From: Selenomonadales bacterium
GTDB lineage: Bacteria; Bacillota; UBA994
Assembly (NCBI GenBank): GCA_018335585.1
Contig: JAGXRZ010000053.1
Location: 25,189 to 89,188 of the forward strand
Length of the DNA stretch: 64,000 nucleotides
Reading direction: 5' to 3'
Shown one piece after another: positions 272 to 56,529 of the stretch. The translations under genes and the position numbers were made by a program. Every line of letters begins with the position of its first letter. Position 1 is the first letter of the stretch. The notes under the pieces were generated by a model. The model saw only the letters and a list, made by a program, of their open reading frames with translations. It made no database searches and was not told the origin of the DNA.

Positions 272-2851
272 TTAATTTCCTCCTCTCTTCTTAACGCCAT
301 ATCCCAAACACGAATCATAGCTTAACTCGAAATCCTCGTTGGCAATTGAACCGTCTATCCCTCGCACCTCGTCGCTCTCGAGCACCATTGCCGCCCGAAA
401 GGGGCTTTCCTCGTGGTCCCCCAGATACACGTAATCCCTTAGCCAGGAAATAGGTTTTGTTAAGACAGCAGGGGCATGATAGGCCGGAACAGTCACCGTG
501 TTTTTCAGCAAGACTGCGGCGATCCTGCGCCGCTCAGCCGGACTAGGGGATTGCGGCAGCATCAGCTCGGAGTTGTCCAAGAAACGTACTATTACTCCGT
601 TTTCCACGTTCACCTGCTTCTTCATCAACAGGACTTCCACTGACTCCATCTCCGAGTACCTGGTAGTGGCTTGGCTCTCCGGCAGTGTCTTCCCCCCCCT
701 CGATACACCGTACAGGGCCAGCCGAGACAGTTTGTCGCGCTCTTGCTCCACTAGGTGCTTGCTACGCGCCATGTCCCCAGTTTCGGTACGATCTTGGTAA
801 GTGGCCTCTAGTAAAGGTCGAATCCCCCCCGGCAACCTGACAATCTGCACATCCTGCCATACCTCAAGTGTCCGACACAGAACATAGGGGCTATAAACAG
901 CGGCTGATTTACCTAAGGTGCTGTGATTATCGATTGCCTCATGCAGGAAGGGGGCCAAAACCCATGCCTCACGCCTTGCTGCCTCTGGTCGGATGGAGTC
1001 ATTTTCACGATGCCTCCATAGCCGTCCCAACCGCTGAAACAGCATATCCGTAGGACATAGCCGGCTAACTAGGAAGTCAGCGTCGATATCCAGTGACTGC
1101 TCCAATACTTGGGTGCCTACCAAGATCCGCCCCTTCGCTTGCCGCAAGCTGTGTCCTTCCTTGCCGAAAAGACTGACCCACCTCCCCTCGTTTGCCTGTC
1201 GGTCTGTTTTGAGGAAGCGGGAGTGCAAGAGCCCGCATTCGAGCTGCAGCTCCACTGCCTTGGCTGCCAAGCCGCGATATCTCTGCTGGGCTTCGTCTAC
1301 GGTGTTCTCAATCCAGAGAACCTGTTCGCCTCTATCGGCCCGCAACAGAGCCTCATCAACGGCATCGTCGTCGCTATTGACAATGCGCACGTTTACCTCG
1401 GCATCCTCTAATTGTTCTACCCCTTGTTCCTGGATCTCCCCACCTGCCGGGCAACTAGTAATAAGGGGATAGGGGGAAATGGCCTCCTCTTGCTCGTTGC
1501 CCTTAGATGACACGCCGAGAATATTGCGCCTCTGATTATCTGTCAGGGTTGCGCTCAGGATAATGACCGTACAGTGCAGTGCTCGAAGCGAGCCGACCAG
1601 CTCTTTGAGAATGGTACCGGTATAGCTGTCATAGCTATGTACCTCATCGAGGATGACAACCTTCCCTGCCAGGCCAAAGGCCCTGACAAAACCATGCTTT
1701 ACATTCATCACAGCCATTAGAGCCTGATCTACGGTACCCACGGCAAAGGGAGCCAGAAGCCCGCGCTTGGAGCTGTTAAACCAGGACCGACCCGGAGCAC
1801 CGTCTTCACCCAGCTCCGTGTCCCGCAGCCACGCTAATCCATGCAACAACAGCGAGCGTCGGTTAGGGTCTTCCTCGTCCAAGATGCTGCTCAAAAAGCT
1901 ATTCATCCTGTCGTAGACCTTGTCTGAGGTTAGTTGAGTCGGGAGTGCGAAATACACCCCTGTTGCCCGCCCGCTCTCTAATGCCTTATAGGCCGCATAA
2001 AGAGCGGCTTCTGTCTTGCCTATTCCCATAGGGGCCTCTAAAACATAGACCCCCCAGTCATTTACCCGCTCTGCAAACCGCCTCTGGACATCGCGCGGAG
2101 CAAACCCACCCATGGATTCAAAGACTCTCTCAAAAGTAAGACCGCGGCGAACCCTAGGCGTGACAAAGCCTGCCTTAGTGACAGCTTCGGAAATGCGTTT
2201 CTGCACTGAATGGCGATCCCCGTGCACCCATGTCTCTGCATCATCGAATAGGGCGCCGGAACCAATCCAATCCGCCACACTGGTTAACCCCGCAAGGATA
2301 TCTGAATGAAGAGAGGTTGGTATGATGGGCCAATCCACATTCAAAGACTGCCTCAGGTTATCCAGTAGCTCTATGCGCTGTTTCTGCCAGGCAGGTCCAC
2401 CATACACTTCTGCATCAGGCTGGTGTGTATTGTGTGGAGTGTAGCCGTGATGCCTTCCCACAATCTCTGAGATATATCCTGGACACTGAGAGGTAGCTGC
2501 CTGGCTAACAGCAAAATGGTAGCCTATCTCCTTATCCCGAGCAGGCTGTGTGAACCCGAGTACCAGCCCGATCTCCCGGTGGATCTTCTCCTGAAATGCC
2601 GGACTGACTTTGCCCACATCGTGTGCCGCGGCAACCAGTTCGCTGCCTAGGGGGAAGAGGCTTTCCCTAAGGCGCGCAGGCAAACGAGATAATAGCTCGC
2701 GTGCAACTAGGCCTACCACTCGGCAATGCGTTTCCACAGATGCGCCCGGCCTGTTATCTAGCCCCTGACGAACAGTCTTTGCCAGGCACTTACTGAGAGG
2801 CAAAACGCTGATTTTGGAAGGCCCCGGCTGCTTGTTTCTAGGCTTCAACAT
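272..2851 (-). CDS. cas3: Cas3 CRISPR-associated nuclease/helicase (N-terminal HD domain + DExH helicase)
   Basis: 859-aa ORF. HD motifs (H...HDVGK), helicase motif I APMGIGKTEAAL, motif II VILDEVHSYD, and a C-terminal Cas3 domain. Confidence 0.85.
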   Translation of the reverse strand: MLKPRNKQPGPSKISVLPLSKCLAKTVRQGLDNRPGASVETHCRVVGLVARELLSRLPARLRESLFPLGSELVAAAHDVGKVSPAFQEKIHREIGLVLGFTQPARDKEIGYHFAVSQAATSQCPGYISEIVGRHHGYTPHNTHQPDAEVYGGPAWQKQRIELLDNLRQSLNVDWPIIPTSLHSDILAGLTSVADWIGSGALFDDAETWVHGDRHSVQKRISEAVTKAGFVTPRVRRGLTFERVFESMGGFAPRDVQRRFAERVNDWGVYVLEAPMGIGKTEAALYAAYKALESGRATGVYFALPTQLTSDKVYDRMNSFLSSILDEEDPNRRSLLLHGLAWLRDTELGEDGAPGRSWFNSSKRGLLAPFAVGTVDQALMAVMNVKHGFVRAFGLAGKVVILDEVHSYDSYTGTILKELVGSLRALHCTVIILSATLTDNQRRNILGVSSKGNEQEEAISPYPLITSCPAGGEIQEQGVEQLEDAEVNVRIVNSDDDAVDEALLRADRGEQVLWIENTVDEAQQRYRGLAAKAVELQLECGLLHSRFLKTDRQANEGRWVSLFGKEGHSLRQAKGRILVGTQVLEQSLDIDADFLVSRLCPTDMLFQRLGRLWRHRENDSIRPEAARREAWVLAPFLHEAIDNHSTLGKSAAVYSPYVLCRTLEVWQDVQIVRLPGGIRPLLEATYQDRTETGDMARSKHLVEQERDKLSRLALYGVSRGGKTLPESQATTRYSEMESVEVLLMKKQVNVENGVIVRFLDNSELMLPQSPSPAERRRIAAVLLKNTVTVPAYHAPAVLTKPISWLRDYVYLGDHEESPFRAAMVLESDEVRGIDGSIANEDFELSYDSCLGYGVKKRGGN

Positions 2852-3699
2852 GCTGGTCTCCTCCCATTCATTCCTGTCGCTCTAACTCCACGACAAACCG
2901 TACTCAGGTCCCCAGCGAATATGGCGTGTCATGATGCAGTCTGCCATGGGCAGGATCGCCATGACGCGAAGTGAATGTTGGGTTGCGCAGTCCTATTTGA
3001 ATTCTACATATGGTATATATTTCATCATTGATCATCAACATCCTGCTCAAAATCCTGCTCACTTTTGATAAAAGCAATGTCAACGTTGACATGAATGTTG
3101 GGGTTGCTGGCTGTGTTAATGGCGCTCTCTAGCTTTGGCCTGTCCAAAAACTAGTGCCGGACCCATTGACTGAACGTCGGCAAGTCAAAAATGAAAAGAA
3201 CTGCCGCCGCAGTCACCCTTAAGCTGTACTCTATGCTCCAGGAGGCGGTTGACCGTGAGTGATCGACTGCGAGAGCTATGCCGCCAAATGCGACTGGGGA
3301 ATCTGGCTATGCTTATTTAACCAAGTAGAGTATGCCGACAAAAAGCAGCACCTTACTGAGCTTCTGGAGATAGCTCACTAATGGCCGCTGACACTGCCCG
3401 TCCGCCCTTTGAAAAGCAAAATTGTTCATGCCGTCCTAGATCCACAAGGGCGGGAACAAGCAATTCCATTTGCATGCCTCGTTTTTTCTTCGCTCGCCGT
3501 TCATAGGCGGCCTGCTTCTCTCAACGCTCCTGTTCGTACTCTATCACTTCCCCAGTGATAGTAGATGCACTCAAAGAAATGACCTAGAGCAGCAGTTGAT
3601 CGCTACATCGTGGGTCGCTGCAGCGTGTTTCATAGACTAGCCACAAGTGGTAAACTACTATCAACAACCCCCTCCACCACATCCCAAAGGAGGCCCGAC

Positions 3700-3912
3700 A
3701 TGCTACCCCAAGCCAAATTAGATCGCCTTAACGCACAGGCGCAAAAGCAAAAGGAAGGCCAGCTCACCCCGGCGGAACAAAACGAGCAGAAGCTTTTACG
3801 CGCGGAGTATATACAGAGTTTTCGCAGCCGAGTCGCGGCCGACCTTGAGGCACAGGGCATGGAGCAGAAGCCTGCGCAGGGCTGTGCCTGCGGCTGCCGG
3901 CATAAGCACTGA
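3700..3912 (+). CDS. DUF896/UPF0291 (YnzC-like) small protein with a Cys-rich C-terminal tail
   Basis: SD AAAGGAGG 6 nt before ATG 3700. MLPQAKLDRLNAQAQKQKEGQLTPAEQNEQKLLRAEYIQSFRS matches the YnzC family pattern. The ORF-track entry 3610..3912 is an N-terminal over-extension. Confidence 0.55.
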   Translation: MLPQAKLDRLNAQAQKQKEGQLTPAEQNEQKLLRAEYIQSFRSRVAADLEAQGMEQKPAQGCACGCRHKH

Positions 3913-3992
3913 GCAAGCTGCGCTTTCGGCTGGCAATAAGCGTCTTTGCGGCAGGAGTGGCTGCTCTGCGCAAGCAGAGCGGCCTATTGATG

Positions 3993-4105
3993 TTTGTGGC
4001 TTGTGGCTTGTCGCTTGTCGCTTGTGGCTTGCGGCTTGCGGCTTGTCGCTCAAAGCTCACCGCTCACCGCTCACAGCTCCGTTCACACTCAGTTCACATT
4101 CACCT
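3993..4105. repeat. Composite heptanucleotide tandem-repeat array (locus A): (GGCTTGT)x7, (CGCTCAC)x3, GTTCACA units
   Basis: Direct reading: gtggcttgtggcttgtcgcttgtcgcttgtggcttgcggcttgcggcttgtcgct caaagctcaccgctcaccgctcacagctc cgttcacactcagttcacattcacc. Confidence 0.9.
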
Positions 4106-9362: not shown

Positions 9363-9378
9363 TCTGGGGCTCCTAACG

Positions 9379-9518
9379 GGCTTTGAGCTTTGAGCTGTGA
9401 GCTGTGAGGGAAAAGGTGCAGTGTGTCTCTGTGTTCTCTGTGCCTCTGTGGTGAACAACTCCTCCCCGGTCGTCTCCACGCAGTGCTAAGTGCGAAGTGC
9501 TAAGTGCTAAGTGCTGTG
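9379..9518. repeat. Composite heptanucleotide tandem-repeat array (locus B): CTTTGAG/CTGTGAG, TCTCTGTG, (GTGCTAA)x5
   Basis: ctttgagctttgagctgtgagctgtgag...gtgtgtctctgtgttctctgtgcctctgtg...agtgctaagtgcgaagtgctaagtgctaagtgct. The CTTTGAG/CTGTGAG units are the reverse complement of the CTCAAAG/CTCACAG units at locus C. Confidence 0.9.
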
Positions 9519-13963: not shown

Positions 13964-15142
13964 ATGGCCATCAAAGTCTTTACCGTGTTTGGGGTACGGC
14001 CGGAGGCCGTGAAAATGGCCCCGGTCATTAGCGAGCTCGGGCGCTATCCTGAGTTTAGCGTTTCCGTGTGCGTCACCGGACAGCACCGCGCCATGCTAGA
14101 CCAGGTACTGCGCCTGTTTAGTATCGAGCCAAAATACGACCTAAACATTATGCGTGAGAGACAGACATTGCCCGAAACGTTTGCGCGGGCGCTTACCGGG
14201 CTTGACGAAATCTTTCGCGCCGACCGCCCGGACATTGTGCTAGTCCACGGCGATACGTCTACAACGCTCGCCGGCAGCCTGGCCGCTTTCTACAACCAAG
14301 TGCCGGTCGGGCACGTCGAAGCTGGGTTGCGTACGCACGAGAAGTACTTGCCTTTCCCCGAGGAAATAAACCGTAAGCTCACGGGCAGCCTAGCCGACCT
14401 GCACTTTGCTCCTACGCCGACGGCGAAGGGCAATCTGTTGCGCGAAGGCGTGCGAGAAGAGAGCATTTTCATTACCGGCAACACCGTCATCGACGCGCTA
14501 GCTACAACCGTGCGGCCGGATTACGAGTACCACGACGCCGCCTTGCGACAGGCGCTCGCCAAGACTACGGGACGATTGCTCTTAGTAGAAGTGCACCGGC
14601 GCGAGAACTGGGGCGAGCCGATGCAGGCCATGTGTTTGGCTTTGCTCGATGTGCTCGCGGCCTTCCCGGACTGCCGCATGATTTTTCCGGTTCACCTTAA
14701 CCCTGTGGTAAGGGAAGTGGTAATGCCTCATCTGGCGGGGCATCCGCAAATCACCCTGCTTGACCCGCTCGATACCGACGACTTCCACAACTTGATGGCG
14801 CGTTCTTACCTTATACTTACCGACTCAGGCGGACTGCAGGAAGAAGCCCCGGCGCTAGGCGTGCCGGTCTTGGTGATGCGCACCAGTACCGAGCGCCCCG
14901 AAGCCGTAGAGGCAGGCACCGTGCGCATCGTGGGGACGTCGCGCGCCGGGATTGTGGCGCATGCGAGCGAGTTGCTGGAAAGCAAAGCCGCCTACCAGTC
15001 CATGAGCACGGCGATTAACCCCTACGGCGACGGCCGCGCCGCAGGCCGCATTGCTCAAGCGTTGCTGCATTTCTTTGGCCGCACGCCGGAACGGCCAGCG
15101 GAGTGGAGAGGTGCCCAGTGCTCAGTGCCCAGTGCCCAGTAG
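13964..15142 (+). CDS. wecB: UDP-N-acetylglucosamine 2-epimerase (non-hydrolysing); the last ~10 codons come from the heptad repeat array
   Basis: MAIKVFTVFGVRPEAVKMAPVI at ATG 13964, in frame with ORF-track entry 13592..15142 (the upstream part of that entry overlaps the deaminase and is spurious). The C-terminus ...GAQCSVPSAQ* is encoded by the GTGCCCA repeats. Confidence 0.85.
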   Translation: MAIKVFTVFGVRPEAVKMAPVISELGRYPEFSVSVCVTGQHRAMLDQVLRLFSIEPKYDLNIMRERQTLPETFARALTGLDEIFRADRPDIVLVHGDTSTTLAGSLAAFYNQVPVGHVEAGLRTHEKYLPFPEEINRKLTGSLADLHFAPTPTAKGNLLREGVREESIFITGNTVIDALATTVRPDYEYHDAALRQALAKTTGRLLLVEVHRRENWGEPMQAMCLALLDVLAAFPDCRMIFPVHLNPVVREVVMPHLAGHPQITLLDPLDTDDFHNLMARSYLILTDSGGLQEEAPALGVPVLVMRTSTERPEAVEAGTVRIVGTSRAGIVAHASELLESKAAYQSMSTAINPYGDGRAAGRIAQALLHFFGRTPERPAEWRGAQCSVPSAQ

Positions 15143-15327
15143 TGGTAGCTGGCTCCTAGCTCCTGGCTCCTGGTAGAAAGACCCGCACTCCCCAGTTCAT
15201 GATTCACGATTCACGATTCATGATTTCTAACGCCTCAAGCCTAACGCCTCACCCTCTCAAAGCTCAAAGCTCAAAGCTCACAGCTCACAGCTCAAAGCTG
15301 GCGGCTGGCGCCTGGCGGCCGGCGGCC
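15111..15327. repeat. Composite heptanucleotide tandem-repeat array (locus C): (GTGCCCA)x4, (TGGCTCC)x3, (TTCAYGA)x4, (CTAACGCCTCA)x2, (CTCAAAG/CTCACAG)x6, (CTGGCGG)x4
   Basis: Direct reading of 15111-15327. Every block is built from 7-bp units. The module order is near-identical to locus E. Confidence 0.9.
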
Positions 15328-15338
15328 TACTCCCCCTG

Positions 15339-15367
15339 TTGCCTGCCACGGACAAAATGTGTAGTAT
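15339..15367 (+). promoter_or_regulatory. Candidate sigma-A promoter of the V-type ATPase operon (TTGCCT-17-TAGTAT)
   Basis: -35 TTGCCT at 15339, 17-bp spacer, -10 TAGTAT with TGtG upstream; about 55 bp before the first ATPase gene. Confidence 0.4.
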
Positions 15368-15421
15368 AGTGTGGGCGATAGTACCGAATTATTAATCCGT
15401 TCCCGAAGGAAGGTGATGACG

Positions 15422-15745
15422 ATGCAGGATGTTTTGCAGAAGATCAAACACGCCGAAACACAGGCCGAGCAGATGGTGCAGGCAGCTAAGGCGGAAGCCG
15501 CCAAACGCTTAGAAAAAGCCGAAGTTGAATACGAAGCGATAGTTAAGCGAGCGGTGAGTCAAGCTAAGCACAAAGCCGAGACAATAATCGAGCAGGGGAT
15601 GGCCGGCGCCGCAGCTAGCGCAGAGGAGATAGTGCTGCAGTCTGACGCCGAGTGCGCTGCCTTGCGCCAGCGAGCAAGCTCGCGACTAAACGCAGCGGTA
15701 AAGCTGATACGAGAGAGGATAATGACGCGCGATGGCCGTAGCTAA
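15422..15745 (+). CDS. V/A-type ATPase small coiled-coil stator subunit (G/H-like)
   Basis: Short Ala/Glu/Lys-rich coiled-coil protein opening the operon. SD GAAGGAAGGTG before ATG at 15416/15422 (start ambiguous by 2 codons). The ORF-track entry starts at 15371. Confidence 0.6.
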   Translation: MQDVLQKIKHAETQAEQMVQAAKAEAAKRLEKAEVEYEAIVKRAVSQAKHKAETIIEQGMAGAAASAEEIVLQSDAECAALRQRASSRLNAAVKLIRERIMTRDGRS

Positions 15746-17705
15746 AATGAAAAAAGTGCATATCGTCGCCCACTTGTCCCGCAAAACGGAGCTTGTGGCG
15801 GCGCTGCAGGAGTGGGCCGTACTGCAGGTAGCTGTCGCCGAACAAAAAGAACGTCATCACAACGTGCAAGCCGGCGCGAGCGCAGTTTCCGCCAGTGAAG
15901 CTGAGGCCCTGCAAGCAGAAATAGGCCGTGCTCTAGTCTACCTGAAGCGGTTTGACAGCTACAAAGAAGGTTTAATCGATAGCTTTATGGGTCTTAAGGC
16001 TGGCGTTTCGCCGGAGTTAGACGCACAGATTCGCGCTAGTTTCGACGCACGCACCGTAGCACAAGCAACGCGCGAGTACGACAAGCGCCTCACCGAGATT
16101 GCCTCCGAGCGGCGGCAGCTGCAAGCCGAACAGAGCGCGCTTTTGGCGTGGTCTAGTCTTAAAGTAAGGCTTAAGGCCGAGCTTAGCGGCACGGTAAACA
16201 TGGTGTTTGGCACCGTGCTACAGAAGGACATGCCGGCGTTTCTTGCGCGCTTGGATGTTGAGTGTGCAGGGCTGTACCACGTCGAGCAAGTGCAGTCTGC
16301 CGGCAATAAGCTAAACCTAGCTATTGTATACCATCGCTCTGTGTCGCCCGCCGTTATTAAGGAAGCTATCTTTACGCCTGCCGCTATCAGCACGGGGGAA
16401 GAGACACCGGCGGAAGCGCTGCTAGACGTACAGACTAAGCTACAAGCACTTCTGGCCGAGGCCGCAGCCATTGCGGCGGCGAGCGTGCGCCTAGTGGACG
16501 AGAAGCTAAAGCTTCAAGTAATGTACGACTACTATGGGTCGCTAATGCAGCGTGAGCGGGCACAGGCAGCCACGCAGGACACGCGGCAGACTTTTTGGCT
16601 CGAAGGCTGGACTGACGTCGACTCCGAGGCGCGCCTGACCGCAGAGCTAGCAGAGCGTTTTCCCGATGTCTACGTGCGCTTTGAGGAAGCACCTCCCGGC
16701 GAAACGCCGCCTATTAAACTTAAGAACGCGAAGTTGGCTAAGCCCTTTGAGATGGTCACAAACATGTATGGGTGGCCGATGTATACCGAAGTCGACCCGA
16801 CGTTCGCCTTAGCTCCGTTCTTTGGCTTCTTTTTCGCCTTAGCTTTAGGCGATGCGGGATACGGACTGTTAATCCTCGCGGCATGCTGGTGGTTTGTTAA
16901 GAAGTACAAGCTAGACTTAGGTTCAAGCAAGTTCTTTAGCCTCTTCATGCTTGCAGGGCTGATTGCGGTGCCGGTAGGTCTTGCTGTCAACGGGTTTTTT
17001 GGCGACCTCTTAAACTATGTGCCCATTCCAATGATCCAAGATATCAGGCAAAGCTTAGTCTTGATTGACCCGATTTCTAACCCCATGGGACTGATGGCTT
17101 TCTCCGTCGCTCTAGGGGTAATCCACATCTTGCTTGGCATAGGCCTAAAAGCCTATATGAGTTGGCGCAGTGGAGATACAAGGGGAGCGGTGTTAGACCA
17201 AGGATCATGGCTGTTTTTGCTGCTCTCGCTGGTCTTGCTAGCTTTGACGAGCGTTTTACCGGGGTTAGGCGGCATGGTTGGCCTAGCTCAGAGCGCTTCG
17301 TTGCTTGGCGCAGTTATAGTAGTGGCTACCCAAGGAAGAGGAGCAAAGGGTATTTTAGGTAAGCTTGGCCTAGGTCTGTATTCGCTGTATGGCGGAGTAG
17401 GTTACTTCAGCGACGCGTTGTCCTACACCCGTTTGATGGCTTTGGGGATGTCGAGTGCCGTCATCGCTATGGTTATAAACACCATCGCCATGATGTTGGT
17501 GCCTATACCTGTGGTGGGTTGGCTGGGGGCATTGCTCTTGTTGGTGGTGGGGCATCTGTTCAACTTGTTGCTTTCTGGTTTGGGCTGTTTTGTCCACTCG
17601 GCACGTCTCCAGTTCGTTGAGTTCTTCACCAAGTTCTTTGAAGGTGGGGGCGTGCCTTTTAAGCCTTTCCAGCGCGAGTCGAAGTTCACCGTCATTAGGG
17701 GCTAG
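15732..17705 (+). CDS. ntpI: V/A-type ATPase subunit I (a-subunit, membrane stator)
   Basis: 657 aa: long hydrophilic N-terminal domain followed by multi-TM C-terminal domain; MAVAKMKKV start. Confidence 0.85.
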   Translation: MAVAKMKKVHIVAHLSRKTELVAALQEWAVLQVAVAEQKERHHNVQAGASAVSASEAEALQAEIGRALVYLKRFDSYKEGLIDSFMGLKAGVSPELDAQIRASFDARTVAQATREYDKRLTEIASERRQLQAEQSALLAWSSLKVRLKAELSGTVNMVFGTVLQKDMPAFLARLDVECAGLYHVEQVQSAGNKLNLAIVYHRSVSPAVIKEAIFTPAAISTGEETPAEALLDVQTKLQALLAEAAAIAAASVRLVDEKLKLQVMYDYYGSLMQRERAQAATQDTRQTFWLEGWTDVDSEARLTAELAERFPDVYVRFEEAPPGETPPIKLKNAKLAKPFEMVTNMYGWPMYTEVDPTFALAPFFGFFFALALGDAGYGLLILAACWWFVKKYKLDLGSSKFFSLFMLAGLIAVPVGLAVNGFFGDLLNYVPIPMIQDIRQSLVLIDPISNPMGLMAFSVALGVIHILLGIGLKAYMSWRSGDTRGAVLDQGSWLFLLLSLVLLALTSVLPGLGGMVGLAQSASLLGAVIVVATQGRGAKGILGKLGLGLYSLYGGVGYFSDALSYTRLMALGMSSAVIAMVINTIAMMLVPIPVVGWLGALLLLVVGHLFNLLLSGLGCFVHSARLQFVEFFTKFFEGGGVPFKPFQRESKFTVIRG

Positions 17706-36674: not shown

Positions 36675-36739
36675 AATATCCCTGTGCACACAATGTGCAC
36701 AGGGATATTATACTTACTCGGCGAGCGTTTGTCAACGAA
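36675..36739 (-). promoter_or_regulatory. fab operon consensus sigma-A promoter (TTGACA-17-TATAAT) overlapping a 16-3-16 perfect palindrome AATATCCCTGTGCACAcaaTGTGCACAGGGATATT
   Basis: Minus-strand reading: cgTTGACAaacgctcgccgagtaagTATAATatccctgtgcacattgtgtgcacagggatattt, then SD and fabH. The palindrome spans -10 and +1. Confidence 0.65.
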
Positions 36740-36766
36740 GCAAAAAGCTCCGTCCCTTTTGCTTCA
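36737..36766. repeat. 34-bp hairpin repeat copy 1 (AACGAAGCAAAAAGCTCCGTCCCTTTTGCTTCAC)
   Basis: 9-bp stem GAAGCAAAA/TTTTGCTTC with an 11-nt loop. It overlaps the stop codon of the Schlafen-like gene and abuts the fab -35 element. Confidence 0.85.
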
Positions 36767-38200
36767 CTTGGTGACAAAGCGCTGGTAACGGCTGCGAGGT
36801 CTTTCGGGCATCGTGAGGCGAATTTTCCCGGCATCAATTAGGGGCTGCACTAACTTGGACATCGTGTAGTATTGCGAGAATCCGGTAAAGCGGGTCAGCT
36901 CATCCCTCGACCTCGGAATGCTGCAAAACGTCAGTAACGCTGCCACCTGGTCGTGGCTTGCTTCTCTAATCGCCGCATGTAAGTTGTTTCTGAATGTGAC
37001 GACGAACTCACCCCTTTGGGCTGCAAAAAGCGGTGCAGGCAACTTGGCCTGATCACATTCTCTGCGGATTGTCGGGATGCCTGAATATCGATTCTCTGTA
37101 ACGGAAAGAAGTTCCAGTATGTTAGCAAGAGTCGGGTTGCGGGTGTCAGGACGCACCTTGCCAAGAGAATCGATGGAGATGTTCCCATATAGTCCGCCGC
37201 TGTTTGTCACCTCCATGCGGTCGCTATACATGACGATACGCACTGGGACAGATTCGGAGTGGATGCTGTAATCTCGATGCACGAGCGCGTTTAGGATGGC
37301 CTCGCGAACCGCCAAGGGAGGAAACTCTGGTCTGTCAACTCGCTTGCCGTCATCCCCAATGACGGTTGTTAGTCGTCCATTCCTTCGCACGAAGTCCACA
37401 GCAGCCTCTAACATGTCGGGTATAGGGCCCGTGATTCGCTGATTGGCTATGAAACGCTCGCCGGCAGTACCGGTATCCCCCATGCTCGTCCCGGGGACGA
37501 CGACTGCCGTGATGCACAGCTGCGGAAAGTTTGCCTGGGGATAGTGAGACAGCGCCATGAGGCCAGCTAGTGTAGGGGTTCCGTTCACCGTCACGCCCAT
37601 AAGCTCCAAAATGCCCTCATCAGATACGTTGTCGGCAATATTCCTTCGGTCGAGCTTAACTGCCCTTAAGTATCGCTCCACACGAGTGGGGTCAAAAAAT
37701 GACAGTCTTGCACTAACCACCGGCCGTAGGTCGTCACGGATACGTTTTCGAAAGGCGTCGAAGCTGTATATCTCATATTCACTCATCAGATCATTAGACT
37801 CCCCGACGCGAATGTACGATCCCTTGTTCCGGCCGACCCCTCTGTAATAGACTGGACGTTGGTCGGCGTCGACACTTGGTATTTCAGCCGCGACGACATG
37901 GTGCCCGTCTATCGTCGCAATGGTGAACAATGGGCGAACGATGGGCTCCATCTGTTTGCACTGCTCGGTAACCTTCCTCTGCAAGTCGTGCGGATCATAT
38001 ACGCCAACAGCACTAAAGCCCGCGCGCTCATCAAGACCAAACACAATCACCCCACCGTCATCTTGGTTAGAGAATGCGGACAATGTGCCGAACAGGCGAG
38101 TAGGGCAGCCATCACGGGCAGACTTCACCTCGATGCCCTGTGATTCGGTCTTCTGCGCTTGGATTTGATGCACCAAATCGACTAGCTCCTCAACCTGCAT
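36764..38200 (-). CDS. Schlafen/AlbA_2-domain ATPase with a C-terminal HATPase_c_4/wHTH region (the 'RecG-like putative transcriptional regulator' family)
   Basis: MQVEELVDLVHQIQAQKTESQGIEVKSA at ATG ~38200 with SD GGAGGTG; ~478 aa. The ORF-track entry extends to 38254. Confidence 0.6.
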   Translation of the reverse strand: MQVEELVDLVHQIQAQKTESQGIEVKSARDGCPTRLFGTLSAFSNQDDGGVIVFGLDERAGFSAVGVYDPHDLQRKVTEQCKQMEPIVRPLFTIATIDGHHVVAAEIPSVDADQRPVYYRGVGRNKGSYIRVGESNDLMSEYEIYSFDAFRKRIRDDLRPVVSARLSFFDPTRVERYLRAVKLDRRNIADNVSDEGILELMGVTVNGTPTLAGLMALSHYPQANFPQLCITAVVVPGTSMGDTGTAGERFIANQRITGPIPDMLEAAVDFVRRNGRLTTVIGDDGKRVDRPEFPPLAVREAILNALVHRDYSIHSESVPVRIVMYSDRMEVTNSGGLYGNISIDSLGKVRPDTRNPTLANILELLSVTENRYSGIPTIRRECDQAKLPAPLFAAQRGEFVVTFRNNLHAAIREASHDQVAALLTFCSIPRSRDELTRFTGFSQYYTMSKLVQPLIDAGKIRLTMPERPRSRYQRFVTK

Positions 38201-38219
38201 CTTCCCACCTCCTACCACT

Positions 38220-38346
38220 ATTATGACAACAATGCGGCAAAAATACAACAGCAAACGTTATTTTACGCAACAACAGTCCAAATTAACGCAACAACAGCGC
38301 GAAATAACGCAACAACAGGCCAACTTGAACCACATTGTTGCGTTAA
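38220..38346 (-). promoter_or_regulatory. Promoter (TTGTAT-17-CATAAT, TG-extended) preceded by three 21-bp-phased direct repeats TAACGCAACAACAG and one inverted copy
   Basis: -10 at 38220-25 and -35 at 38243-48 on the minus strand. Repeats at 38265-76, 38286-97 and 38307-18; inverted copy at 38333-46. Confidence 0.5.
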
Positions 38347-38360
38347 CTGAGTTTATCAAC

Positions 38361-38390
38361 GAAGCAAAAAGCTCCGTCCCTTTTGCTTCA
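38361..38390. repeat. 34-bp hairpin repeat copy 2
   Basis: aacgaagcaaaaagctccgtcccttttgcttcac, identical to copy 1. Confidence 0.85.
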
Positions 38391-38450: not shown

Positions 38451-40235
38451 TCATGCGCACACCTCCGCCACATCACTTTGGCAGAGCACTTTTCCATGCT
38501 CAAATAGGCTGGCGTAATGTCCCTGTCGTGCCAAGAGCTCGGCGTGCGGCCCTGCCTCGACCACGCGCCCTCCATGTATAACGGCGATGCGATCCACGCG
38601 ACTTAAGAGATGCAGGCGATGCGTGACAATAATCTTGGTCGACGGAAGGCGCAATATGCAGTCTGTCACCAACCGCTCCGTTTTCATATCGAGCGCGGCC
38701 GTCGCTTCGTCTAAGAGCAAAACCGCGGCTCCGCGCAAAATGGCTCGCGCCAACGCTATCCGCTGTCGCTGCCCGCCCGATAGGGTACCCCCGCCCTCGC
38801 CTATAATCGTGTCGTAGCCCTGCGGCAGTGCCTTAATAAACTCGTCCGCTCCGGCCTGTGCGGCCGCCGCCCGAATATCTGTCTGCGTGGCGTCAAGATT
38901 GCCTAACCGGATGTTCTCTGCGATTGAGGTCGGCAAGAAGAAGTCATCCTGCGGGACATACGCCATATGCCGGCGCACGCAGGCGATTGACTCGGCGTCT
39001 AAGGCTTGACCGAAGCAAGAGACGACTCCGGCACTCGGTTGCCTAAAGCCAAGCAGGAGCTCCAGTAAGGTGCTTTTGCCCGCGCCGCTCGCCCCCACGA
39101 TGGCTAACGCCTCTCCGGTTCGCACCTTGAGGCTGAGCTCGCGCAACACGTCAGTCGCACCCGTAAACCCAAACGATACCCTATCGAATTCCACTGCGTA
39201 CTCCAGAGCGGCAGGCGGAGGCGGGCAGACCTTAGGCGGTAATGGCTCCACAGGCAGCTCCAGGACTTCCAGTACTCGTTCCGCCGCTTCACTGGCCGCT
39301 TTAATGTTTGCCAAGCTCTGCGCCACTCCCGAGAGCGGCCAGGTCAAGGCATTAAGCAGGTTTAGCAGTACAAAGAGCTGCCCTAAGCTCAGTCTGCCTG
39401 CGATAACGTCAAGCCCGCCTACGCCAAACAGCACGAGAAAAGGCACGACCGAGAACACTGTCATGGCTGCGTGCATCTGGCCCCGCAGCAAGGCGAGCTT
39501 AGCCGCATTGCCTACGGCGCTTTCCTGCAGGGCACTCATCCGTGCAACAAGGTAGTCGCGCATATTGTAGACCTTGGCAATGACTATTCCGGCCACCGTA
39601 TCTTGCGCGAGAACATTCACCTTAGCTATATCGCTTTGCCATAACTTGAGGACCGCACCCATGCGCCCGCCTAGCCAAGATGCGACAAACATCATGAGCG
39701 GCGCCATCGCCACCGTCAGCAATGTAACTTTCCATGACACGAGCAGCATTACCACCAGCGAGGCGACAAAGCCTAAGCTGCCTTGTGCGAGGTTTGGCAG
39801 GTGGCGCGCGAAGGCCGACCGCACGACTTGTGCGTCATTGCTAAGGCGAGAAACATACTCCCCGCTGTGCGTTTGTTCGAGCGCAGGGATGCGAGCCCGG
39901 CCAAGGTGCATGGCCACTTGCGCGCGCAGGCCGTGCATAACGCTCTCCGCGAGTTCTCCGGTAAGCAGTTGCCGCAGTAGCAAAGCAATGTCTCCGCCAA
40001 CCCAAACCAAAACTAACAGCAAAAACGTCTGCCCAAACGCCTCTCTGTCGGCAAGGATGCCTACATCAATAATTGCCCCAAGCTGCCGAGCTAAGAGCAC
40101 CCCCAGCGCCACTTGCAGAGCGATAACCAGCAACGCCCCAAGCGCTGTGATTCTATGCTGCCTGACGTACCCCCATAGTGCTTGCTGCCCTCGCCTTGGT
40201 TCCTTACTTGCTGCCGCCCGAGGTTTCCCCTGCAT
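38451..40235 (-). CDS. Fused TMD-NBD ABC exporter (MsbA/multidrug-type half transporter)
   Basis: Walker A GASGAGKST; signature LSGGQRQRIALARAI; Walker B LLLDEATAALD; six N-terminal TM helices. Confidence 0.85.
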   Translation of the reverse strand: MQGKPRAAASKEPRRGQQALWGYVRQHRITALGALLVIALQVALGVLLARQLGAIIDVGILADREAFGQTFLLLVLVWVGGDIALLLRQLLTGELAESVMHGLRAQVAMHLGRARIPALEQTHSGEYVSRLSNDAQVVRSAFARHLPNLAQGSLGFVASLVVMLLVSWKVTLLTVAMAPLMMFVASWLGGRMGAVLKLWQSDIAKVNVLAQDTVAGIVIAKVYNMRDYLVARMSALQESAVGNAAKLALLRGQMHAAMTVFSVVPFLVLFGVGGLDVIAGRLSLGQLFVLLNLLNALTWPLSGVAQSLANIKAASEAAERVLEVLELPVEPLPPKVCPPPPAALEYAVEFDRVSFGFTGATDVLRELSLKVRTGEALAIVGASGAGKSTLLELLLGFRQPSAGVVSCFGQALDAESIACVRRHMAYVPQDDFFLPTSIAENIRLGNLDATQTDIRAAAAQAGADEFIKALPQGYDTIIGEGGGTLSGGQRQRIALARAILRGAAVLLLDEATAALDMKTERLVTDCILRLPSTKIIVTHRLHLLSRVDRIAVIHGGRVVEAGPHAELLARQGHYASLFEHGKVLCQSDVAEVCA

Positions 40236-40341: not shown

Positions 40342-40371
40342 GAAGCAAAAAGCTCCGTCCCTTTTGCTTCA
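40342..40371. repeat. 34-bp hairpin repeat copy 3
   Basis: agcgaagcaaaaagctccgtcccttttgcttcac, located between the ABC gene and spoIIID. Confidence 0.85.
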
Positions 40372-52401: not shown

Positions 52402-52412
52402 GAAGCAAAAGG

Positions 52413-52442
52413 GAAGCAAAAGGGACGGAGCTTTTTGCTTCA
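52413..52442. repeat. 34-bp hairpin repeat copy 4 (inverted orientation, preceded by a partial duplicate)
   Basis: agaagcaaaagggaagcaaaagggacggagctttttgcttcac. Confidence 0.85.
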
Positions 52443-52498: not shown

Positions 52499-52606
52499 AG
52501 TCGCTTACCGCTCACCGCTTACCGCTAACCGCCCACGGCCCCCCACAAGCGACAAGCGACCGGCGTCCTGCGACATCGCCTTGCACAAGCGACAAAAACG
52601 CCAAGC
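52499..52606. repeat. Composite heptanucleotide tandem-repeat array (locus D): (CGCTYAC)x5 and (ACAAGCG)n
   Basis: tcgcttaccgctcaccgcttaccgctaaccgcccac...cacaagcgacaagcgac...cacaagcgacaaaaacgcc. ACAAGCG is the reverse complement of the CGCTTGT unit at locus A. Confidence 0.85.
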
Positions 52607-53513: not shown

Positions 53514-54725
53514 ATGCGACACTTTTTTACCTCAGAGTCAGTGACAGAAGGGCACCCCGATAAAATCTGCGATCAAATTGCCGACGCCGTACTAGACGCC
53601 ATTCTCACGCAAGACAGCACCGCCCGCGTAGCGTGCGAAACGGCGGTCACTACCGGACTTGTCCTGGTCATGGGCGAGATATCCACTACCTGCTATGTGG
53701 ACATCCCGCGTATAGTGCGTGACACCGTGCGCGAAATCGGCTACACGCGGGCTAAGTATGGCTTTGACGCCGAGACGTGTGCAGTAATTACGTCCATCGA
53801 CGAGCAGTCGCCCGATATCGCCCAAGGCGTCAACCAGGCACTAGAGCAAAGGGAGGGTGGCGAGGCGCCCGACCAAGCCTCGAGCACCGGTGCCGGCGAC
53901 CAAGGCATGATGTTTGGCTATGCCTGTGCAGAGACGCCGGAATACATGCCTTTGCCCATTAGTCTGGCCCATAGCCTCGCACGCCGCCTGAGCGCCGTGC
54001 GCAAACAGCGCATTATCCCTTATCTCCGGCCCGATGGCAAAACTCAAGTCACCGTGGAATACGAGGGACATCGCCCCGTGCGGGTTGACACGGTTGTAGT
54101 CTCGGCGCAACACAAACCGGAGGTCACACTCCCGACCATTCGCGAGGACATCATTGCGCAGGTCGTGCGCCACTGCATCCCCGCGCACTTGCTCGACCAC
54201 AAGACAAAGTTCCTTATAAATCCAACGGGCCGATTTGTGGTGGGCGGGCCGCAGGGCGACAGCGGCCTCACCGGGCGCAAAATCATGGTCGACACTTACG
54301 GTGGTGCAGCACGCCACGGCGGCGGAGCGTTTTCCGGCAAAGACCCAACCAAAGTTGATCGCTCGGCGGCGTATGCGGCGCGCTATGTGACGAAAAACAT
54401 CGTAGCCGCAGGGTTAGCGGAGCGCTGTGAGTTGCAGGTCGCCTACGCCATTGGGGTGGCGAAGCCCGTCTCGATTATGGTCGATACCTTTGGCACGGGT
54501 GCAGTAAGCTCAGACAAGCTAGCCCAGATTGTAGGCCGCCATTTTGACTTACGTCCGGCAGCGATTATCGCGCACCTAGGCCTGAGGGCGCCAATCTATC
54601 GCCAAGTAGCGGCTTATGGCCACATGGGGCGCCCTGACCTTGACCTCCCCTGGGAGCGACTTGATAAGGTGGCGGAGTTAAGGCAGTATGTGGGTGCCCA
54701 GTGCCCAGTGCCCAGTGCTCAGTAG
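53514..54725 (+). CDS. metK: S-adenosylmethionine synthetase; the C-terminal 10 residues come from the heptad repeat array
   Basis: [10 protein letters not shown]; GAGDQG; [18 protein letters not shown]. The terminal ...[12 protein letters not shown] is encoded by the GTGCCCA repeats. Confidence 0.95.
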
Positions 54726-54900
54726 AACGGGGGACTCTTGGCTCCTGGCTCCTGGTAGAGGGAGTGCTTAGCGGTTAAAGCGTACGGCTTACAGCGTACA
54801 GCTTACAGCCATCAGCGGACAGCCACTCCGCAGTGGCAGTTCATGATTCACGATTCCTGATTCATGATTGCTCAATGCTCACCGCTCACCGCTCAAAGCT
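54694..54900. repeat. Composite heptanucleotide tandem-repeat array (locus E): (GTGCCCA)x4, (TGGCTCC)x2, (GCTTACA)x3, (TTCAYGA)x4, (CGCTCAC)x2
   Basis: Module order mirrors locus C. Confidence 0.9.
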
Positions 54901-54940
54901 AAAAAGGTGGAGAGGCCAAAGCCTTTCCACCTTTTCATTT
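54901..54940. terminator. Bidirectional terminator between metK and nhaC
   Basis: aaaaaGGTGGAGAGGCcaaaGCCTTTCCACCtttt. Confidence 0.65.
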
Positions 54941-56346: not shown

Positions 56347-56529
56347 TGATTTCCCTCCTTATAATTTTTCACTGAGCGCCTCAATCTCTTTCTATATTGC
56401 GGCCTCCCTCACCTTCTCAAAAAAAATGAATTGTACAATAAAATTTTAACTTGGCGGCCTCAATTAAGCAAGAGACAGATTTAGGATGAGCACTGAGCAC
56501 TACTCCACTGCATACCATAGTGCAAGGGG

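Follow-up and report, generated by a model that had tools for sequence, protein, structure and literature searches.

Repeat-encoded C-terminal tails on WecB and MetK from mosaic heptanucleotide arrays in a Selenomonadales bacterium

The stretch of DNA analysed here (the window) comprises 64,000 nucleotides (nt) of contig JAGXRZ010000053.1 from the Selenomonadales bacterium assembly GCA_018335585.1. Two of its genes, wecB and metK, run at their 3' ends into arrays of tandem 7-nt repeats, which are referred to as array C (or locus C) and array E (or locus E), respectively. The coordinates of the repeat blocks were obtained with Tandem Repeats Finder (TRF) and by direct reading of the sequence. 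The features of the two loci are as follows.

13964-15142, plus strand: wecB, encoding UDP-GlcNAc 2-epimerase (PF02350; 392 residues, identical to protein P0121), with its final 9-10 codons encoded by repeats
15111-15142, plus strand: array C block 1, GTGCCCA GTGCTCA GTGCCCA GTGCCCA followed by GTAG (TRF, GTGCCCA at 15111-15140)
15149-15176, plus strand: array C block 2, three TGGCTCC/TAGCTCC units ending TGG-TAG (TRF, CTGGCTC at 15149-15173)
15196-15225, plus strand: array C block 3, (TTCAYGA)4 (TRF, TTCACGA at identical coordinates)
15226-15255, plus strand: degenerate CTAACGCC/CTCAAGCC units of array C (direct reading)
15256-15299, plus strand: array C block 4, (CTCAAAG)3 (CTCACAG)2 CTCAAAG (TRF, CTCAAAG)
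15297-15326, plus strand: array C block 5, (CTGGCGG)4, common to strain L252 (TRF, GCTGGCG)
15339-15370, plus strand: promoter-like TTGCCT...TAGTATAGT of the V-type ATPase operon, kept in all relatives
53514-54725, plus strand: metK, encoding S-adenosylmethionine synthetase (403 residues), with its final nine codons encoded by repeats
54694-54725, plus strand: array E block 1, (GTGCCCA)3 GTGCTCA followed by GTAG (TRF, GTGCCCA at 54694-54723)
54726-54738, plus strand: array E linker AACGGGGGACTCT (direct reading and relatives)
54739-54758, plus strand: array E block 2, (TGGCTCC)2 ending TGG-TAG (TRF, CTCCTGG at 54735-54755)
54775-54825, plus strand: array E block GCGTACG GCTTACA GCGTACA GCTTACA GCCATCA GCGGACA (TRF, GCKTACA)
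54840-54869, plus strand: array E block (TTCAYGA)4 (TRF, TTCATGA)
54870-54900, plus strand: array E block GCTCAAT GCTCACC GCTCACC GCTCAAA (TRF, GCTCAMM)
54902-54939, no strand assigned: terminator hairpin with a 15-bp stem and a T run (RNA folding and orthologous sequences)

Both reading frames enter a (GTGCCCA)4-GTAG block, and WecB and MetK end with the same peptide, GAQC(S/P)VPSAQ. In WecB, the tail of which reads ...EWRGAQCSVPSAQ*, block 1 encodes AQCSVPSAQ and the stop codon TAG at 15140-15142; in MetK the corresponding block encodes AQCPVPSAQ and the TAG at 54723-54725. Each open reading frame (ORF) thus closes within its array, that of wecB at 15142 and that of metK at 54725. One C/T substitution in a single repeat unit accounts for the S/P difference, and a WecB variant at 98% identity (P0122) has the tail AQCPVPSAQ. 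A first-pass annotation of this DNA had stated that both arrays begin inside the upstream gene and that the shared tail is encoded by the repeats and terminated by the TAG at the block end, and on both counts the translations agree with it.

The tail is absent from the relatives in which no repeat lies at the stop codon. MetK homologues at 91-97% identity are 393-399 residues in length and nearly all end ...ELRQYLG or a close variant of it, the 399-residue homologue having a different tail (...VGKVERL). More distant homologues also stop at the ...ELRQYLG position, and the MetK of the window runs nine residues further. WecB homologues at 83-89% identity have 383-384 residues and end ...RPAEWTY, ...PPDWVHY or ...RPAEWKCR, compared with 392 residues in the window. 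Homology reaches ...ELRQY(L/V)G in MetK and ...RP.EW in WecB. As the close orthologues end 8-9 residues sooner, the native ends of both enzymes have been extended and not overwritten; the first-pass annotation had offered either outcome. Whatever the frame, translation of a 7-nt unit yields one and the same peptide with a period of seven residues; agreement between WecB and MetK therefore requires no more than a matching phase of the closing TAG (one chance in three), and their identical peptide calls for little explanation. Stop codons occur in all three frames within about 80 nt in both arrays. A protein search with (VPSAQCP)6, by which tails of nine residues are undetectable, found no more than 15 ORFs, all of them short, hypothetical and devoid of Pfam domains.

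In an array-free relative with 91% MetK identity (L250, positions 2650-2745), the metK ORF extends into the terminator hairpin as far as the loop, where it stops, giving a different extension of five residues (...VGKVERL). Within this clade, the stop region of metK is evidently labile.

Heptanucleotide repetition is not confined to these two loci. The occurrence of period 7 was compared with that of periods 6 and 8-12, with 20 shuffles of the window as the control. Twelve period-7 segments (344 nt) were found, against none in the shuffles, and the window holds no array of period 6 or 8-12. The period-7 arrays occupy five or six spacers; they run in either orientation and are found both before and after terminators. 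Those additional to C and E are listed below.

3994-4102, plus strand: array A, (TTGYSGC)8 (the reverse of AAGCGAC-type units), then (GCTCAMM)4 (TRF)
9378-9518, plus strand: array B, CTCAAAG/CTCACAG units in reverse complement, followed by (AGTGCTA)5 (TRF)
52502-52565, plus strand: array D, (CGCTYAC)5 (ACAAGCG)2 (TRF)
56487-56501, minus strand: mini-array (GTGCTCA)2, upstream of the antiporter gene (TRF)

The arrays all lie in spacers, the sole exception being an overlap of 30-32 nt with the 3' end of wecB and with that of metK. Array A is situated between divergent cas3 and response-regulator genes, about 60 nt upstream of the start of the latter, with one of its block types reversed; array B lies between AcrB-family and Sua5/TsaC-family genes, both on the same strand; and array D follows two terminator-like hairpins and precedes the promoter of the operon that contains metK. 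An array in a related contig (L228) likewise comes after a terminator. These contexts do not fit a dedicated element of the 3' untranslated region or a fixed rule of orientation. The preferred 3'-of-gene orientation proposed in the first-pass annotation is not borne out, given the reversed units in array B and in part of array A, the position of A upstream of a gene start and that of D between terminators and a promoter.

The arrays share their units across loci to an extent well beyond chance. When exact runs of at least two copies were assigned to the 1172 possible heptamer classes, six pairs of same-class runs at different loci were found where 0.11 would be expected (Poisson P = 2e-9). The shared classes are the following.

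GTGCCCA and TGGCTCC: common to arrays C and E
CTCAAAG and CTCACAG: common to arrays B (reversed) and C
GCTCACC: common to arrays A and E
AAGCGAC: common to arrays A (reversed) and D

Arrays were compared with each other by pairwise local alignment and by a segment-permutation test, in place of a MAFFT alignment of five arrays that carried no information past the first block. TRF and direct reading agree that C and E have four heptamer classes (GTGCCCA, TGGCTCC, TTCAYGA and GCTCAMM) in the same order and the same orientation, as had been reported for them at first pass, and they also have the linkers GTAG, TGGTAGA and CACTCC-CAG in common. The GCKTACA block of E is missing in C but is similar to the middle part of the array at wecB in L252, a strain with 98% WecB identity; the stretch GCTTACA...GCGGAMA of E aligns with that array. 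The CTAACGCC/CTCAAGCC units of C recur in the metK array of a further relative (L249). The linker GTAGAACGGG follows a block both at metK (window and L249) and at wecB (L252), and the junction GTAGAACGGGGG is kept after the (GTGCCCA) block in L249 and, in the L252 array at wecB, after a GTGCTTC block. In addition, a 74-nt stretch, GGGGTTGY-(TGGCTCC)3-TGGTAGAGGGAR-(GTGCCCA)4-GTRGA, aligns with five mismatches between the metK spacer of L249 and L228, an unrelated spacer that lies downstream of pyrB/pyrI at a distance of a few genes, on a contig with no blastn match to the window. Since blocks and some linkers are common to different loci, the arrays are probably related by copying. C and E are therefore copies of one thing at the level of the block, as the first-pass annotation had it; the case for copies of one fixed module, which it had also made, is weak.

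The sites orthologous to metK and wecB were examined in relatives, with kinship judged from the identity of one protein alone. At metK, the spacer of L250 (91% MetK identity) contains no array, and that of L007 (95%) contains only CTCAAAG CTCACCG CTCAAAG ahead of the terminator. In L006 (93%) the stop codon is followed by (CTCCTRG)4-TAGAGGGAA-(GTGCCCA)2-GTAGAGCGG..., then by (CGCTCAC)2 CGCTCAAAG and the terminator. In L249 (96%) the order is stop codon TAG-GGAAGGCGGGGGGTTGT-(TGGCTCC)3-TGGTAGAGGGAG-(GTGCCCA)4-GTAGAACGGGGGG..., with more blocks before the terminator. The window has (GTGCCCA)4-GTAGAACGGGGG as in L249, but joined directly to ...CAGTATGTGG of the ORF. The GCTCAMM block beside the terminator is common to four lineages (the window, L007, L006 and L249) and is the oldest; the TGGCTCC and GTGCCCA pair is found in three, its order in L249 and L006 being opposite to that in the window; and the TTCAYGA block is private to the window strain. 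The blocks thus differ in age, and array E did not arrive as one 200-bp unit.

At wecB, three relatives with 83-89% identity (L251, L009 and L010) have a plain, repeat-free spacer of 55-70 nt, with the promoter kept downstream. In the window this spacer is replaced by about 215 nt of array, the right-hand boundary of the replacement being the promoter-like TTGCCT...TAGTATAGT. L252 shares both ends of its array with the window, (GTGCCCA)4-GTAG-GGTAGC-TGGCTC and (CTGGCGG)4. The middles are wholly different, with (GTGCTTC)3-GTAGAACGGG, (GCTTACA)3, (GCGGAAA)3 and (AAGCGAC)4 in L252 and TTCAYGA, CTAACGCC and CTCAMAG in the window, and whole blocks therefore turn over between very close strains. No target-site duplication or terminal inverted repeat was found on comparing the filled wecB sites (window and L252) with the empty ones (L251, L009 and L010).

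Downstream of wecB lies a V-type ATPase operon (V_ATPase_I, ATP-synt_C and vATP-synt_E; 15371-17705 in the window, and in L009/L010). In Firmicutes the gene order upp-dCMP deaminase-wecB is usually followed by the F-type atp operon.

These comparisons bear directly on the proposal, made at first pass, that C and E are insertions of a discrete mobile module of about 200 bp, (GTGCCCA)-(TGGCTCC)-(TTCAYGA)-(GCTCAMM), which enters at the 3' ends of genes, preferentially in one orientation, and supplies its own tail and stop codon. The colinear, co-oriented block types and the shared junctions of C and E are what such a module would leave, as are the absence of the wecB array from the relatives at 83-89% identity and the recurrence of the two-block core of about 75 nt at non-orthologous loci. 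Order and content nevertheless differ at orthologous sites: the metK blocks are of different ages, with the TGGCTCC/GTGCCCA order flipped in L249 and L006, and the L252 array has different middle blocks. The ends carry neither inverted repeats nor target duplications, and the replacement of the whole wecB spacer is not a clean insertion. Units that are reversed, that stand upstream of a gene start or that lie between terminators and a promoter (arrays A, B and D) are not accommodated either, and the permutation result cited for the order of the blocks (given below) is close to the 1/24 chance of ordering four shared blocks, with ten locus pairs possible in the window. A single mobile module is thus quite unlikely.

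The arrays are most simply read as members of a dispersed, lineage-specific family of heptanucleotide arrays in the spacers of an uncultured Firmicute, the tails being by-products, and we consider this the probable explanation. Each array would be a mosaic of short blocks, with two to eight copies of one heptamer per block and linkers that mostly start GTAG(A/G). Slipped-strand mispairing is the most likely source of the blocks and of their changes in size, and deletion between short direct repeats may be the means of their loss. Segments of several blocks would be copied from one array to another by recombination or template switching across shared units; such copying would explain the block types, the order and some of the linkers that C and E share. 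A possible trace of loss is seen in L003, a strain with identical MetK, which has an extra stretch of about 150 nt downstream of a DegV-family gene with TGGCTCC-like units and (GTGCCCA)6. The stretch is missing in the window, where short direct repeats bound the gap.

The two tails can be accommodated as follows. At metK, the native stop codon and the first TGGCTCC block were most likely lost in a deletion of about 52 nt between two copies of GTAG-GGA. This would have fused the ORF in frame to a pre-existing (GTGCCCA)4 block, the closing TAG of which became the new stop codon. At wecB, an array starting with a (GTGCCCA)4 block would have replaced the spacer of 55-70 nt at the stop codon, again with the closing TAG serving as the stop. 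The arrays themselves presumably have no dedicated function.

Several points weigh against this reading. The survey of arrays covers the 64-kb window of one genome and short loci from relatives. The direction of the metK event, as a deletion here and not an insertion in the relatives, is suggested by parsimony and by kinship drawn from a single protein. No slippage event was seen directly, copy number being invariant across the four or five assemblies compared. The replacement of whole blocks between close strains is poorly explained by simple slippage and hints at a more active copying process. The block order shared by C and E beats most permutations, their observed global alignment score being reached in 14-32 of 1000 segment permutations. 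Finally, each of the four large GTGCCCA arrays observed in this lineage lies downstream of a gene and reads in the sense direction, which would also suit a mobile module.

A more novel reading, which we regard as a tentative possibility, is that the composite arrays are a hitherto unknown type of copy-and-paste element that lacks inverted repeats. A core of (TGGCTCC)n-GTAGAGGGAG-(GTGCCCA)n-GTAGAACGGGG would have been born at the metK stop region and then copied to wecB, to the 3' side of the DegV-family gene and to L228 by template switching or gene conversion, carrying its stop-codon context with it. The birthplace is proposed because the GTAG and G-rich linkers of the core resemble the native post-stop sequence of L007. 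If correct, this would account for the TAG found after almost every block and for the acquisition of one and the same stop codon by two ORFs. Nearly every heptamer block in the lineage is followed by GTAG(A/G) and a G-rich linker (54722-54758 and 15139-15176 in the window; also L249, L006 and L252), and the post-stop sequence of L007 (GGTAGGGAGGCGAAGTGCTGCC) resembles a linker plus the first GTGCCCA unit. This resemblance suggests that the (GTGCCCA) block may have originated at the metK stop region.

The repeats are reproducible between assemblies. Assemblies from NCBI, JGI, ENA and Logan contain the exact MetK and WecB proteins. Three other assemblies carry array E unchanged and a fourth (L003) has a few point substitutions in it, with constant copy number throughout (L001-L004); array C is base-for-base identical in four others (L269-L272) and in the 77 nt covered by a fifth (L273). 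Identical sequence in independent assemblies indicates that the arrays are real and stable within the strain, and argues against both artefact and phase variation. Repeats are hard to assemble, and the NCBI assembly GCA_964349715.1 has runs of N at spacers that hold arrays in related contigs. As the same sequence was nonetheless recovered by JGI, ENA and Logan from different samples, and the variants in relatives are coherent, we regard an assembly or sequencing artefact as next to inconceivable. In the assembly with N runs (L005, CAYGHR010000002.1) these fall in the spacer lying upstream of the metK operon, a position occupied by heptamer arrays in related contigs, and no gene is called for about 1.7 kb past metK, where L006 has the antiporter gene; arrays of this kind may break or mask short-read assemblies.

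The same stability speaks to whether the arrays are contingency loci, that is, hypermutable repeats whose changes in copy number switch or alter gene products. The unit length is not a multiple of three and the repeats overlap coding sequence, and heptanucleotide repeats are reported to drive HMW1A phase variation in Haemophilus (PMC8262952). Neither locus varies in copy number, however; the repeats lie past all conserved residues, where a change of frame only lengthens the tail to about 25-27 residues, and the genes affected encode housekeeping enzymes. Phase variation is accordingly highly improbable here.

A further explanation is that the arrays are functional cis elements under selection, such as a protein-binding platform, a stabiliser of mRNA 3' ends, a Rho-loading site or a spacer that tunes termination, with the tails merely tolerated. 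Array E sits between the metK stop codon and a strong bidirectional terminator, upstream of the hairpin, and would therefore be transcribed. This hairpin, which is kept in relatives, separates the convergent metK and Na+/H+ antiporter genes; it was missed by a simple consensus scan for terminators and is clear on folding. [quoted passage not shown] Arrays C, D and A are rich in C relative to G on the sense strand (C/G of 1.3-2.2), but array B is G-rich, and the idea of Rho loading was rejected because the skew is inconsistent across arrays. The folding signal of array E (z = -3.4) is mostly due to the terminator hairpin, array C shows no excess RNA structure (z = +0.77), and an Rfam scan of the whole window gave no match at the gathering score. 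Placement is inconsistent as well, D and L228 following a terminator, C having none and A lying in a divergent spacer by a gene start. The arrays are, moreover, missing or wholly different at the orthologous sites of close relatives. On balance, we consider a selected cis function unlikely.

Other repeats and features were noted in the window. Four mismatch-free copies of a 29-nt hairpin, GAAGCAAAAGGGACGGAGCTTTTTGCTTC, are present, against a chance expectation of none (36737-36765, 38361-38389 and 40342-40370 on the minus strand and 52413-52441 on the plus strand). The copies at 36737, 38361 and 52413 lie at or shortly after the 3' end of a gene in sense orientation, the 5' arm is partly duplicated at 52402-52425 (TRF), and the hairpin is also present in L007; it looks like a dispersed terminator-like repeat or one of the repetitive extragenic palindromic (REP) type. 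The spacer between the minus-strand genes at 36764-38254 and 38451-40235 contains three copies of TAACGCAACAACAG at 21-nt spacing followed by an inverted copy, CATTGTTGCGTTAA (38265-38345), and looks like a putative operator or cluster of binding sites. Between the Cas3 gene (HD nuclease and helicase; 272-2851, minus strand) and array A lies about 1.1 kb devoid of long ORFs (2852-3990), in which no CRISPR-like repeats were found.

Searches beyond the lineage place the units in a wider setting. Matches to (GCTCAMM)3 in genomes and to (GTGCCCA)3 in metagenomes come from many phyla, among the matches listed. A universal heptamer vocabulary was considered and rejected: in viral contigs, a collection other than that of the original genome and metagenome scans, heptamers with shuffled units gave 1, 10 and 3 matches, compared with 2 for GTGCCCA. 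With only 1172 classes, recurrence of any unit is expected, and so it is the 7-nt period that is special and not the units. Inverted pairs of heptamer arrays around a short loop, that is, long hairpins built of repeats, were observed in other phyla at metagenome loci (L134, L145, L152, L160, L220, L221, L223, L237 and L238) and genome loci (L029, L054, L061 and L128). At three metagenome loci (L151, L163 and L242) (GTGCCCA)n arrays appear to lie inside long coding sequences, one of them apparently in a eukaryote-like protein kinase.

Among known repeat systems, bacterial interspersed mosaic elements (BIMEs) are mosaics of a few motif types with defined linkers, and the REPs within them are imperfect palindromes of about 35 nt mobilized by REP-associated tyrosine transposases (RAYTs). 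Like REPs, BIMEs and the related REP doublets forming hairpins (REPINs, the subject of PMC3116915), the arrays described here are short non-coding intergenic repeats that are often 3' of genes, mosaic and copied around the genome. Unlike them, they consist of non-palindromic heptamers with a period of seven, and a Pfam scan restricted to the genes flanking the arrays identified no transposase or reverse transcriptase adjoining any array. Contingency repeats are generally found in promoters or 5' coding regions. The arrays resemble those reported to control HMW1A in Haemophilus influenzae (PMC8262952) in being gene-associated tandem heptanucleotides. Whereas contingency repeats vary within populations, the arrays here lie at the 3' ends of housekeeping genes and are invariant in the strain, with no copy-number polymorphism for E in L001-L004 or for C in L269-L272 and the part covered by L273.

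Within the 64 kb, the arrays display the period-7 excess, the recurring units and the mostly intergenic placement of long heptanucleotide simple sequence repeats (SSRs) or STRR-like repeats. STRR sequences were reportedly described in cyanobacteria by Mazel and co-workers in 1990, and the unit GCCCAGT found here is one base from STRR1 (CCCCAGT). STRRs are 7-bp repeats of unknown function (PMC2670836; also described in PMC4692102), and the title of Vioque (1997), as cited in PMC7593598, places them inside the RNase P RNA gene. Like them, the present arrays are made of 7-bp units in short tandem blocks; a few unit types recur at numerous scattered sites, most of them intergenic, blocks of different kinds adjoin one another, and the repeats can intrude into genes. 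They differ from STRRs in their host, which is an uncultured Firmicute and not a heterocyst-forming cyanobacterium, in their units and in the repeat extension of two protein ORFs; strict membership does not hold, as the metagenome-assembled genomes are labelled 'Selenomonadales bacterium' or Firmicutes and the units differ from STRR1-3.

Heptameric SSRs are over-represented in many bacteria, where they are dispersed and typically comprise about four units, and polymerase slippage has been proposed as their origin (PMC4692102). The GGGAATC repeats of Xanthomonas vary in length and sequence between close species, are found as inverted pairs of arrays flanking an intergenic loop and, in 7-11% of cases, share part of their length with ORFs (Rehm et al., 2015, PMC4692102). 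The arrays of the window resemble these and the GGGGAYT repeats of Nostoc in being dispersed, mostly intergenic heptamer arrays of about four units that overlap ORFs and vary at orthologous sites. The Xanthomonas and Nostoc repeats are, however, G-rich and form G-quadruplexes, whereas the units here have no runs of G and are assembled into mosaics of several blocks with conserved linkers.

Orthologous sites at several evolutionary distances document turnover by block gain, loss and replacement, by direct-repeat deletion and by sharing between loci. To judge from these alignments, such turnover may delete the native stop codon of a housekeeping gene and lengthen the enzyme by a short tail encoded in the repeat, at no visible cost. 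Because the C-terminal extensions are real ORF sequence here, they matter for genome annotation. Taken together, the data reveal no new system or function: STRR-like heptamer repeats in an uncultured Firmicute are of a known kind, and their repeat-encoded extension of two housekeeping enzymes is well documented; the results bear on the old question of how dispersed heptamer repeats such as the STRRs spread.

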